Source: Squalus acanthias (lineage: Eukaryota). Taken from it: 64,000 nucleotides of DNA. Numbering within the stretch: the first letter of the stretch is position 1; every line of letters begins with the position of its first letter. Location of the stretch: positions 124,001-188,000 of the forward strand of contig JASTWF010000334.1 of the NCBI GenBank assembly GCA_030390025.1. Reading direction: 5' to 3'. A program made the translations under genes and the position numbers. Below are positions 34,485-43,560 of the stretch, piece by piece. The notes below the pieces were generated by a model. The model did not search any database. It had not been told where the DNA came from and saw nothing but the letters and a program-made list of their open reading frames with translations.

Positions 34485-36110
34485 GTTCTTCATGAATAAA
34501 CAAAGGGATTCGATTAGCCTCTATGTTGTCCAGTCCCTTCTGTATCACCTTCATCACAAATGTCACATGGAGGTTACCTCTAGTAAGCCCTTGATTCTGA
34601 TTAGCCTCATTGTTCGCCTGTATCTACTTGTTTATTTTACCCTGGATCTTCCCCAGCTCTCGCGCCAATTTTTAGTGGACAATAATGTACTCAGATGCTC
34701 CCTCAGATTATCAACCTCTTGTTGATACACGTTCGTCAATAATACTTTTAATTGCCTCTTCATTACCTCAGTGTGTTCCCACATAATTTCTGGACTGGAT
34801 TTTCTCAATGGAGACGTGTTGAAGGTGGGACTGCTGCTTGCTGGGTCTCAGTCCCGCCTCCATCAGCCTCTGGCCAACCAGTGGGATTTTCCCCTGATTG
34901 ACCTTGTTAAGCCCGCCCTGCGGGTTCAGCAGGCCAATTAGGGGGAAGTCACTGACAGAGCATGTCAACGTATGACTTGCCATCTGTCAATATTTCTTTA
35001 AAGAAGAAATGTCAGCGTTTGACAGCTCTGTGAAGCTGTCAAACACTGACATTCTGTGTAGTTTGATGAGCCCTTGTGTTCAGGACTCATCAAACCTTTC
35101 AACTTTGCAGAAATCACCTGGCTGTTTGGTTGGAGGATCCAACAGCCAGTCTGTGAAATCTACAATGAAGATGTCGGGACTCCGGATCCACAGCGGGTGA
35201 AGGCAGTAGGCAGAAACAAAGTTAAGTGAACATTTTATAATACTTAACACTCACCTTAGATACTTACCCCATCACACTTGCACCCATCACTCAGCTCTAC
35301 ATCTCACTTTCAGACCCCTCTGATCCCCTCCTCCCTCCTCCTCACCTCTTACACCCTGGCGGGGTTCTCCGAGGTCGGGAAGCCTGCACTTGGAATGGTA
35401 AAATGGGACTAATCCTTTTTTCTGCCTGTTAACTACCTGGTAATAGGATTTAATCCCTTTCCTGCCTCGAGGAGACAGGACCAGGGGCAGGACAGCTTCC
35501 TGCCTCCTGGAAAAAGGGCACGGAGGTGGGATGGGGGTGGGTTTGCCAGCTGCCCCCACATTCTGTAACTTTACCGGCCGTCCTGCCTCCATACCCGCCT
35601 CCTCGGGGCTGAGAAAATCCAGCCCTCAGTGTCTATTCTATTTACTCTTGCTAACCCTGGTGTGGCTCCTATTCCTGGACATACTGTCAATCCTTGCTTT
35701 CTTCATGATTTACACTGATTCTCCTTATGTTCCCTATCTTCCTCAGCCCTTGGTTCCTGTTTTTATTTTTTTTGCTAACACTTCCTTTACTAATTCTCCT
35801 ACCATTTTATCTATTAATTGTGAATAACTCCCTTCACATAATCCAGTTGACAGATTCAAGTTCATATTTAACACAACCGGTACAATTTCAAAACACACAT
35901 CGTTATATAATACATTTCCTGATTTAACTACTTCTAGTCCATTAACATTTGGGTTCTTTTGCTGGATTGGACAGGTAGAGTTCTTTTTGTGAGGTGGGAT
36001 TTTTTTTGGGTCCCACATGTATTTTAGTCTTATGATAATCACCATCAGCGTTTGTACTTGGCAAACCAATAGTTAATATTACTTATCAACATAAGACATT
36101 TCTTACTTTA
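34485..36110 (-). pseudogene. Third F-like env relic, split by a Harbinger-type element
   Basis: ORF 35743-36069 CPIQQKNPNVNGLEVVKSGNVLYNDVCFEIVPVVLN matches outer env CPATTPGPRNGFVLVPTRKILYHDVHYEVASVILN; then S*RKQGL..GIGATPGLARVNRIDTE, MKRQLKVLL..QEVDNLRE and LDNIEANRIPLFIHEEH. Confidence 0.75.
34792..35625. mobile_element. Non-autonomous Harbinger-type element (~830 bp)
   Basis: TIR ggactggattttctc...gagaaaatccagccc; reverse-complement homolog of 36352-37105 and 61361-62169. Confidence 0.75.
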
Positions 36111-36299
36111 AAATAACCTGCTGTCATTCCCTTTTAAGATTGTATTGAAGTTTTTTACAATGTTCTTGAATTACTTTTTATCCTACTGTGATATGAACTG
36201 TTTAACTGAATCCTATTAATTCTGTGGCCAATTTAGGCGTTTTGGGTCAGGGTATGTCCCATCCCAACTGGTTCAGGGGAGTCTTCCTGGTCTCCCACA

Positions 36300-40770: not shown

Positions 40771-40802
<32 letters not shown>

Positions 40803-43560
40803 CGGTATCCCAATATCATGCCACACGTGACATCTGCTACAAGCCATTCCTGGGCTTTTGATCTTATCAATAGATCATGGGATGTCTGGAGATTTTGTTT
40901 TTATTTGTTCTTGGGTTGTGGGCATCACTGGCAAGGCCAGCATTTATTGCCCATTCCTAATTGCCCATGTGGTGAGCCACCTTCTTGAACCACTGCAGTC
41001 CGTGTGGTGAAGGTACTCCCATTGTGTTGATAGGGAAGGAGATCCAGCATTTTGACCCAGTGACGATGAAGGAACAGCAATATATTTCCAAGTCAGGATG
41101 GTGTGCAACTTGGAGGTGATGGTGTTCCCATGCGCCTGCTGCCCTTGTCCTTCTAGGTGGTAGAGGTTGCGGGTTTGGGAGGTGCTGTCGAAGAAGCTTT
41201 GGCGAGTTGCTGCAGTGCATCTTGTAGATGGTACACACTGCAGCTATGGTGCACCGGTGGTGGAGGGAGTGAATGTTTAAGGTGGTGGATGGGGTGCCAA
41301 TCAAGCGGGCTGCTTTGTCCTGGATGGTGTCGAGCTTCTTGAGTGTTATTGGAGCTGCACTCATCCAGGCAAGTGGAAAGTATTCCATCAGACTCCTGAC
41401 TTATGCCTTCTAGATGGTGGAAAGGCTTTGCTCAACTCCCCCTGCATGGTCCTGATGTCTCGGGTAGTGGCCAGATTATCAAATGCACTTTGTTTATTGT
41501 TCAGTATAGGCAATGTTACAAACATCTCCAAGAGAAAGCCAGCATTTTACTATTCTTAACTACACTTTCCTGACTTTCACAAGAACATACATTAATACCA
41601 GATTGCACCCAGGTGATTTATTCCAATTCACCTCAGAAAAACGATTTTAGAAAAATTCCCATTTGGTAGTGTAATTTTCCTGTTTTCATCTTACATCCTC
41701 AATCACTTCCTCTTATTCAATTTTACACCCTAATTACCATTTCATCTCATTCACGAGCCCCAGAGGAACTTTACTGTCCAATAAAATATTATCATAATAT
41801 CTTTAAAACATAGATCAAACTTTCCCACTTGGTCCAACTTTTAACACATTTTGTTTGTTCAATTTTACATAATCGAACTTCTTCTTGCCCTTTTATTGTT
41901 TGAAAGGAGCCTGCTATAATGTGCCTAAGTCCATTTTATCATTTCAAGTTGATCACAGACCCCAAGAGCAGTATTGTTGGACTGCTGGGTCTTTTCAATG
42001 TTCAATTCTATTTTCTGCCAAAAAACCTTCTTCCTTGACAAACAAGAACCACCTAGACTGCACTCATCTCTTTTTTTAATGACAATTTTGATTATCCCCT
42101 TAAACTTCTGGTAAATCATCCTGTCTTAAGTGCTTGAAACATCAATTTATCTTATCAATTCCAATTTCAGAAACAAATGATGCCCAGGCTTGGTGGTTTT
42201 ACATTCGAGATAGGCATGCTTGCAATTACTTTGGAGGTAACTTCCATATCTCCCCCTCTCGAGCACTCTGTCTTGGAAGATAACAAATGACTCTGACTGG
42301 GTTATGTCCGAGCCTTTAAAGGGCAAAATCTTATGTCCAAATCATCAGTTTGCTGTGACATTTGATGTCTTCAGATAAATTCTTAAATTCTTAAAACTGC
42401 TAGATCTCGTGCTGCATGATCAGCAGTCATGCGGTGGCCACCTATTTAAAGGAAAAGAAACGAGTGAATCCAGTGTGGCTCTGCTTCAGAGCCCAAGAGG
42501 TTAATTTGTCTATTCATAATTTCCTTCTGTCACCATGGGGAAATAGCCACTTAAATGAAGAAACTTACATTTAATAACACCACATATAAATTTACATTCA
42601 GCAATACAAAAGTGTTTGCTTGGTGAATCAAGAAAACTGCTGCCAGCGGAAAGGGTTAACTCCTTTGTAGGTTTATAAGGCGGCGGAGCGAAACCTTGTC
42701 AGATGCCATTGCATCACTTCACGTAAATTTAAGAAAACTTTTCCAAACAACCAAACTCCATCTTACTTTAAAAAAAAATTCTCAGTCTTTTAAAACTTGC
42801 ACAAAATTTCCTGATGCAATTAAATTCATAAACAAATTTCAGCTTCTCCTTTACTTCCAATTTTCAAAACGTGAGCCACGAAAGCACAAAAATGTTGCCA
42901 AATTTTTATCCTTCCACATGAATTAAAAATCAGTTAAAATCAGCAGAAATTGTTAGCAACACCACTATTAATTTTAAACATTCTGCGAAACAATTCTATT
43001 CCAACTATAGGATTTCTTCCCCTTTTTTTCTATATGAATTTCTCATATCTGGAACTCTCACGCAATTTACAACAACCAGAATTTCACTGTGGCCACAATG
43101 ACAGTTGGGTTTTCACCAGTTAGTAGGTTAGTTAAACCTCAATAGTTCCAAGTTAAATCAGACGAATATTTTATTGACTAAACACAATACAGAACAGATA
43201 AAATAAAACAAAATAGCACGTGCTTACAGTAAATTGAGTCATTGTTTCTTCAGGTGTCTTTCCAAATGACTGTAATATAATGGATGAAAAGGTTAGCTTT
43301 CACAATTAAACAAAATCTTTAACGTTCTTACACAAGAGGGAAAAGAGGGCAGAGCCAGAACCAGTGGCGCAAAACCATTTCATACAAGCTTTTCAAAGAG
43401 GCAGTACGCTGAAATCTTGAAGCCTTTAACAGTAGAAAAGGGACAGAATCTTTCCCTTTGTCCTTCTTTATTCCATCAAAGACTACCTTATCCTTTTTTC
43501 CCTCTCAAACCAATATTCAATTTCTGAAGTTTGCTACTTAACCTCATTTGGAAAAGCAAT
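40110..43560 (-). mobile_element. Decayed ERV internal region related to 20900-23100
   Basis: Collinear same-orientation blocks, e.g. aactgagcatgtctgagaccc (21068/40688), atcaatttatcttatcaattccaatttcagaaacaaatga (21738/42141), aaagggttaactcctttg (22052/42650). Confidence 0.75.
40895..41430 (-). mobile_element. LINE 3' end (RT C-terminus)
   Basis: MEYFPLAWMSAAPITLKKLDTIQDKAARLI..SLHHRC. Confidence 0.75.

Follow-up and report, generated by a model that had tools for sequence, protein, structure and literature searches.

A decayed retroviral locus with stacked pieces of F-like envelope genes in an intron of Squalus acanthias

The closest described systems are the snakehead retrovirus (SnRV) and its endogenous kin, the lokiretroviruses, and retroviruses that exchange envelope genes. 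As given in the parts of the papers that we consulted, SnRV has gag, a full pol, one env and accessory open reading frames (ORFs) (PMC12193657); SnRV-like endogenous retroviruses (ERVs) form the clade Huo (PMC6001957) and are known in the elephant shark as CmiERV lineage I (PMC4422223). Here we describe a decayed retroviral locus on the minus strand of Squalus acanthias DNA (assembly GCA_030390025.1, contig JASTWF010000334.1, positions 124,001 to 188,000). This stretch of 64,000 nucleotides (nt) is called the window, and coordinates refer to it. The locus (34483-43560) is like SnRV and the Huo clade in that their envelope protein (Env) is homologous to the family found here and that its reverse-transcriptase (RT) remnant is closest to the Pol of the viral genome L053. 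Unlike SnRV, it has pol as a scrap only and pieces of two or three envs; gag, long terminal repeats (LTRs) and a primer binding site (PBS) were not found at or near it, and neither the gag-pro-pol-env order nor the accessory ORFs of the clade are seen. We lean, with some hesitation, towards reading the locus as the fossil of a defective provirus of the SnRV (Huo) clade that stacked env pieces by recombination while it was carried by helper viruses.

The Env of lokiretroviruses, as described in the part of Wang and Han (PMC7947760) available to us, is related to the fusion protein (F) of paramyxoviruses and pneumoviruses and has a signal peptide, a basic cleavage site, a fusion peptide, a coiled coil and a transmembrane (TM) segment. 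There is one env per genome, and the comparison with the locus is one of description, not of sequence. The hosts are lampreys, bony fishes, amphibians and reptiles; in the main text as far as consulted the words 'shark' and 'cartilaginous' occur 0 times. A Mononegavirales-F-related Env was also found here, by a fold search of a related protein, and is not exclusive to lokiretroviruses. In RD114, XtERV-S and recombinant KoRV (PMC10536682, seen in part) env is exchanged and defective genomes spread, as at the locus, but there one env replaces another, whereas at the locus old env pieces are kept and stacked. Further context is found in the consulted parts of PMC11089739 and PMC11521997.

Read 5' to 3', the locus consists of the RT scrap, a dead env (env 1), the C-terminal end of a second (env 2), a CR1-type long interspersed nuclear element (LINE) and the N-terminal half of a third (env 3). 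The part upstream of the env 2 piece is called the backbone, and a second copy of it lies in another ERV of the window, the inner element (14824-24888). The closest intact relative of env 2 and env 3 is P0014 (GCC29952.1), an uncharacterised intact ORF of 739 residues from the bamboo shark Chiloscyllium punctatum; that of env 1 is P0026 (KAM8960540.1), an intact ORF of the frog Pelodytes ibericus. The domain names F2, HR1 and HR2 are labels that we presume to apply.

43174-43560, minus strand: 5' remainder; 43174-43314 matches inner 22184-22351 out of order, and a LINE fragment begins at 43573
42745-43173, minus strand: reverse-transcriptase scrap; 43064-43173 is 77% identical to inner 22696-22799
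41532-42700, minus strand: backbone middle, either env body (by length and one match, 42668-42532) or pol remnant (RT thumb, 42050-41838)
41432-41531, minus strand: backbone, dead F-like env, P0026 residues ~442-474
40885-41431, minus strand: high-copy repeat fragment in the backbone, 547 nt, not in the inner copy; self-match at 50416-50247; summed depth in millions
40552-40884, minus strand: 3' part of the backbone, Cys-rich region of the dead F-like env, P0026 residues ~475-600, with an AC microsatellite at 40775-40802
40127-40430, minus strand: env 2, F-like, C-terminal piece (P0014 residues 581-647); one subfamily with the N-half
36298-40126, minus strand: CR1-type LINE with a nested terminal inverted repeat (TIR) element (~36352-37110); CTCCCA on both sides; RVT_1 at E 3e-11
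36138-36297, minus strand: probable membrane-proximal, TM and tail part of env 2, P0014 residues ~660-719 in a collinear reading across the CR1
36053-36137, minus strand: short spacer before the N-half, containing Met and a hydrophobic run; hydropathy peak 1.49
35626-36052, minus strand: first part of the env N-half, with F2, a broken cleavage site and the fusion peptide (P0014 residues 156-297)
34792-35625, no strand assigned: non-autonomous TIR element, Harbinger-type by its shared ends, between env residues 297 and 298
34483-34791, minus strand: env N-half, second part (HR1 region), P0014 residues 298-403, with one frameshift and one stop; ends at a minisatellite

The minus strand at 36052-34483 corresponds to residues 156-403 of P0014, an F-like Env, at 41% identity. 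With tblastn, residues 163-298 were found at 36033-35625 (E 8e-18) and residues 286-403 at 34826-34483 (E 1e-15). In a frameshift-tolerant alignment 57 of 140 residues were identical in the first part and 43 of 103 in the second, and the score of 212 compares with a maximum of 44 in 12 shuffles. The first part also matched the Env family with hhalign (97.5%, E 7.5e-12). Pfam gave no relevant family in three frames of 34480-36400. The N-half of a hidden F-like env had been claimed at 34485-36110 by a reading made from the sequence only, and these matches bear it out. The motifs NGLEVV..VLYNDV.FEIVPVVLN, NRIDTE and RIPLFIHEEH quoted in that reading are present, but the cleavage site, given as RKRGL, reads RKQGL and follows a stop. 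The expected alignment with the env of host gene A (12168-14473) was obtained as a modest match (24% over 54 residues, E 1.5e-4); P0014 is a far better match to the locus than the gene A copy.

The N-half is interrupted by stops and frameshifts and has a broken basic cleavage site; it breaks off at P0014 residue 403 beside the host minisatellite at 32045-34467. An open frame, a basic cleavage site, and HR2 and TM in N-to-C order are thus not found together as in an intact Env; the C-half is missing and a C-piece lies upstream. The locus encodes no protein today. The Met and hydrophobic run at 36053-36137 is a possible signal peptide; the segment is too short for the first 155 residues of P0014 and did not match the N-termini of four relatives. 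Two runs of organism A contain a contig of high depth that is without 122 nt of the N-half (34614-34737), an amplified deleted subfamily.

The gene A frame, searched against 1.84 billion proteins, gave 25 relatives. Proteins of Pristiophorus, Chiloscyllium, Mustelus, Rhinoraja and Scyliorhinus are closest to the F-like env of the window; longer homologues of the gene A env were not found, and no related loci were confirmed in viral contigs, metagenomes or prokaryote genomes. One bamboo shark and two frogs have F-like env ORFs that are intact over their full length and carry an extra N-terminal region (P0014, P0026 and P0028); these are candidates for young proviruses or host-kept genes. P0014 and P0026 are single intact ORFs, whereas the locus consists of decayed pieces. 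The label 'Ig-like' for the extra region of P0014 is a UniRef name only: Pfam found no such domain there, and the structure prediction had a pLDDT below 50.

Membership in the F-like class is indicated by the sequence homology of 36052-34483 together with the F fold of the P0014 model. The model (pLDDT 50.7), made without the extra N-terminal region, gave 34 PDB matches at E up to 0.001, and all those listed are paramyxovirus or pneumovirus F; for this low-confidence model the top match had E 3.7e-5 and a TM-score of 0.18 by query length. Among viral models the Env of walleye dermal sarcoma virus came second, and walleye epsilonretrovirus Envs took ranks 2 and 5. Paramyxovirus and pneumovirus F, foamy-virus Env (PMC11468914) and F-type errantivirus Env (PMC13524379), both papers seen in part, fall in a common fold class with P0014, at 9-15% identity and TM-scores of 0.11-0.20 by query length for the low-confidence model. 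The P0014-type relatives differ from F in their extra N-terminal region. In the consulted part of its main text, PMC11468914 does not mention snakehead, walleye or loki. The ancestral Env would have been a class I fusogen of the paramyxovirus-F type, with cleavage at a basic site, a fusion peptide and an HR1/HR2 hairpin.

On the other side of the CR1, upstream of the N-half on the minus strand, lies a piece from the C-terminal end of an F-like env (40377-40176). P0014 residues 605-647 match 40301-40176 at 46% (tblastn, E 7e-6), and the match was extended to residues 581-647, with a score of 98 against a shuffle maximum of 46. P0014 is the best relative of the env 2 piece and of the env 3 piece alike; the two are of one subfamily. 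The tail of env 2 likely continues to the left of the CR1: when the break is marked with an X, the P0014 alignment extends to residue 719 at 36138 and gains one point (99 versus 98). About 30 nt beyond this tail-like segment come the Met and hydrophobic run and then the N-half. Alternatively, the N-half could be a separate insertion whose place beside the backbone is due to chance or to a deletion at the CR1. In a paralog scan, in which contigs of four runs from three organisms were aligned at 80% likeness, the 15 joints listed of about 3,415 include none that spans the CR1 or the TIR element, which is uninformative, and the tail segment at 36138-36297 is not significant alone (reached by 42 of 200 shuffles; hhalign E 0.51). 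However, the same 6-mer stands at both ends of the CR1, the env subfamily is the same on both sides, and the P0014 alignment continues across the marked break without a change of frame; we regard a separate insertion as very unlikely.

The backbone region (40110-43560) matches the inner element in six DNA blocks of 67-78% identity, covering 1,536 of 3,451 bases. Their counterpart within 19700-24400 is limited to 20903-22799, the block 43064-43173 is out of order, and no DNA match in the inner element was found for 40110-40527 and 43315-43560. Collinearity with the 5' half of the inner ERV, as claimed from the sequence only, and the similarity foreseen for a dot-plot against 19700-24400 are therefore real but partial. 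The 5' part of the backbone is an RT scrap, clear in the inner copy and weak here. RT motif A lies at inner 22676-22535 (scores 66, 85 and 93; 0 of 100 shuffles), adjoining 22696-22799. The direct match in the present copy (43018-42807) was obtained in a narrow window with relaxed gaps only (0 of 100 shuffles; 43 of 100 with strict gaps). A shared block of 140-170 nt (22184-22351 and 43174-43314) precedes the RT start in one copy and follows RT motif A in the second. A reading of 43174-43314 as TM was rejected, with 146 of 150 shuffles reaching its score (11 of 150 in the inner copy).

In both copies the 3' part of the backbone matches residues ~442-600 of F-like Env at 0 of 200 shuffles. A profile built from P0026, P0028 and P0014 over residues 435-600 scored 74.6 with strict and 120.3 with relaxed gaps over 41531-40552, and 61.6 and 122.4 in the inner copy at 21327-20927; none of these scores was reached in 200 shuffles each, while the scores of an integrase profile in the backbone copies were reached by 56-180 of 200. 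When the whole region was tested, env queries stood above all 120 shuffles in three of five query-copy pairs. Farther upstream, P0026 residues 81-126 match 42668-42532 with a score of 64, above 120 of 120 shuffles and 42 of 42 non-env windows (maximum 55). The match lies 53 nt from its predicted place, as near as 17 of 200 shuffled best matches.

Several points weigh against the reading of a fossil with stacked env pieces. The windows for the env profile were picked after earlier matches; masking of the microsatellite cuts one env match from 62.6 to 46.5; real DNA gives P0014 chance scores of 64 and 67; and hhalign confirmed none of four single-frame pieces of the backbone (E 0.34-0.71, one in the wrong frame). 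The match of P0026 residues 81-126 comes from one query and is not seen in the inner copy, env residues 127-445 have no match in either backbone copy, and an RT-thumb profile matches 42050-41838, where env is expected (0 of 100 shuffles relaxed, 4 of 100 strict). The middle 1.1 kb fits neither an env nor a pol reading. To these are added the tail segment of env 2, not significant when taken alone, and the mechanism itself: template switching by reverse transcriptase is inferred here and not observed.

Two interim readings were given up. That of the whole backbone as one env was weakened by the missing residues 127-445, the hhalign results, the microsatellite and the RT-thumb match; that of a pol running through to integrase found no significant RNase H or integrase profile in either copy. 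Env residues 220-400 likewise gave no significant score in the two copies. Relaxed alignments over the whole length are not used as evidence here, since the inner copy scored above shuffles on its opposite strand as well.

If the backbone were mostly pol (RT, connection and RNase H) and only its last 0.45 kb env, a single deletion would have joined pol to env, and env 1 would be one short piece. The RT scrap at the 5' end, the RT-thumb match, sub-threshold Pol matches at 42692 and 42500, and RNase H-like motifs seen by eye near 42150-41700 (not significant) speak for this arrangement. It is opposed by the RNase H and integrase profiles and by the conflicting registers of the Pol matches; moreover 42668-40552 without its insert measures 1,569 nt, which fits about 520 env residues. 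We consider it unlikely.

The sequence-only reading had removed the Harbinger element and the CR1 and read the rest as a decayed gag/pro backbone that natively precedes one F-like env, with the N-half of the latter at 36110-34485. That the F-like env belongs to a retroviral family was loosely right. Near 40810 here and 21175 in the inner copy, a DTG triplet and a knuckle-like stretch are visible by eye, but the DNA with DTG aligns to env at 0 of 200 shuffles. On this copy the scores of 16 Gag and ten protease queries were 27-41, within the range of six shuffles each, six gag/pro profiles were reached by 11-38 of 40 shuffles, and the Gag of L053 scored 33; these negatives are of limited power on decayed DNA, as shark viruses are far removed from the reference sequences and the real RT remnant escaped Pfam as well. 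Pfam gave no relevant family in six frames of 40101-43700, three of 19701-24500 or 30 shorter frames, and a PDB sequence search of three backbone frames stayed at chance level (best E 0.016). A Gag matrix reading of inner 23393-23638 had no support (Atlas 0.82). The backbone instead holds an RT scrap, which belongs downstream of gag/pro, and then a dead F-like env, and after excision of the two insertions a C-terminal env piece still comes ahead of the N-half. A native layout of gag/pro and then one F-like env is thus extremely unlikely, and the two insertions were an incomplete inventory, the repeat fragment at 40885-41431 having been missed.

The affinity to SnRV comes from both pol and env. 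Among 26 ORFs of seven viral genomes the RT remnant scored best with the Pol of L053 (85), followed by L048 (67), the other 24 ORFs giving at most 50; the affinity is one of best score, for a remnant of 49 residues in the inner copy. The Env of L053 matched the Env family profile with hhalign (84.7%, E 6.6e-6, 276 columns) and the gene A copy with BLASTP (E 3.6e-4). L053 is presumably SnRV, its 10,688 nt being the length published for the GenBank SnRV sequence in the consulted part of PMC12193657. The Env of L053 (L053:6131-9532) had no Pfam family at E 0.01, although it is homologous to the F-like family.

Under the preferred reading of a helper-carried fossil, an early deletion would have removed most of pol and joined RT to env, and the defective RNA would have been carried by helper viruses. 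Template switches of RT between co-packaged genomes could then have laid further env pieces behind the dead env, and a jump back to the 3' end of env would give the order of C-terminal before N-terminal piece. After integration the CR1, the TIR element and the repeat fragment would have landed, and a deletion on the minisatellite side would have removed the 3' end.

The inner element bears on this reading. Its LTRs are 98.3% identical and enclose the same dead backbone. The 208 mismatches between the two backbones are without codon periodicity (355 of 500 permutations, against 0 of 500 for two coding CR1 controls), and 9 of 47 gaps are multiples of three; the absence of periodicity indicates that they were copied while dead. 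Behind the inner backbone lies an env C-piece (20704-20182) of another subfamily, nearer to P0006 and the gene A copy and without DNA match to the locus, followed by integrase (45% to L048, 30% to L053) and a gamma-type env. Env pieces of three lineages thus lie within one pair of LTRs, which is the best argument for stacking during replication.

A different origin would be an ancestral shark lineage of the SnRV clade that natively carried two to three paralogous F-like envs head to tail, the locus and the inner element being its decayed descendants. The tail-like segment, stop, spacer of about 30 nt, Met with hydrophobic run and F2 in one frame do resemble neighbouring genes, a paralog at 86% identity keeps the junction, and the inner element stacks env pieces too. 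Yet env 2 is 5'-truncated in both elements and its subfamily differs between them, the backbones diverged as dead DNA, and none of 28 relatives was shown in tandem, their genomic context not being seen. We hold a native array to be quite unlikely; if it were true, one virus would have had several envelopes whose N-terminal modules differ or are absent.

As a single locus this is dead DNA, and what it adds is the stacked layout and the SnRV link, for which no prior account was found in the literature searched, which lacks most subscription papers. The locus links F-type envelopes in cartilaginous-fish retroviruses, homology to the Env of an infectious fish retrovirus (presumably SnRV) and the accumulation of envelope pieces from several lineages; it bears on the origin of retroviral envelopes and on the frequency of their exchange. 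Fish retroviruses may have F-like Env more widely than the parts of the literature read suggest.

The three insertions are of different kinds. The element claimed as a Harbinger at 34792-35625 is a TIR element exactly there, with inverted ends of 16 nt. Its end motif has three matches in the window (0.08 expected), the third at 44058, ahead of a DDE_Tnp_4 transposase ORF; copies at 71-72% lie at 36358-36967 and 61383-62165. The flanks TCT and TCA differ by one base, where a target duplication of 3 nt is expected for PIF/Harbinger. The element at 44058-47531, with a DDE_Tnp_4 transposase frame and the same end motif, has a related copy at 1-1524. The CR1, placed at 36300-40110 from the sequence only, was correctly recognised, with better bounds at 36298-40126; contigs of other CR1 copies skip the nested TIR element. 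The fragment at 40885-41431 is presumably the 3' part of a LINE.

The locus lies antisense in intron 2 of host gene B, ahead of the exon 48188-48355, which matches C-type lectin domains (best E 8e-4). Gene B has a signal-peptide exon at 30667-30720, and gene A is its inverted paralog: 27167-28097 matches 31182-30281 at 87%, and 8124-9056 matches 50162-48009 at 80-86%. Intron 2 of both genes contains the same minisatellite, short in gene A (26291-26723) and of 75 copies in gene B (32045-34467), and an F-like env element starts right behind each. The insertion had been judged independent of the gene A copy, and this stands: 34480-36300 has no DNA match to the gene A env, the subfamily differs, and the orientation to the host gene is opposite.

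In the paralog scan many divergent contigs, as many as 37 at a single site, aligned to the non-repeat parts of the locus, which points to multi-copy families; summed contig depth is not a copy number. The junction at 40528 is bridged by one contig of organism D (X9 record 28), and that at 36100 by one of organism A at 86% identity (X1 record 2). No RNA holder was listed for the locus.

The inner element has a 3' LTR at 15342-14824 with TG..CA ends and a purine tract, a 5' LTR without its first ~35 nt, and no visible target duplication; it may have entered the surrounding outer element by recombination and not by normal integration. Its primer site near 24398 resembles what we take to be tRNA-Gln. 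The segment 17370-19704 holds an open integrase core (Pfam rve, MLVIN_C) without the N-terminal part, closest to L048, and the gamma-type env with a single in-frame stop; with its SnRV-like RT remnant and L048-like integrase the inner element is chimeric, drawn from two retroviral lineages. The outer LTR element (10855-26243, minus strand) has LTRs at 26243-24957 and 12018-10855 that are 97% identical over 957 nt, and a primer site near 24950, presumably like tRNA-Arg. Its own content is only the F-like env (~14470-12168, with frameshifts), which makes it an env-only LTR element.

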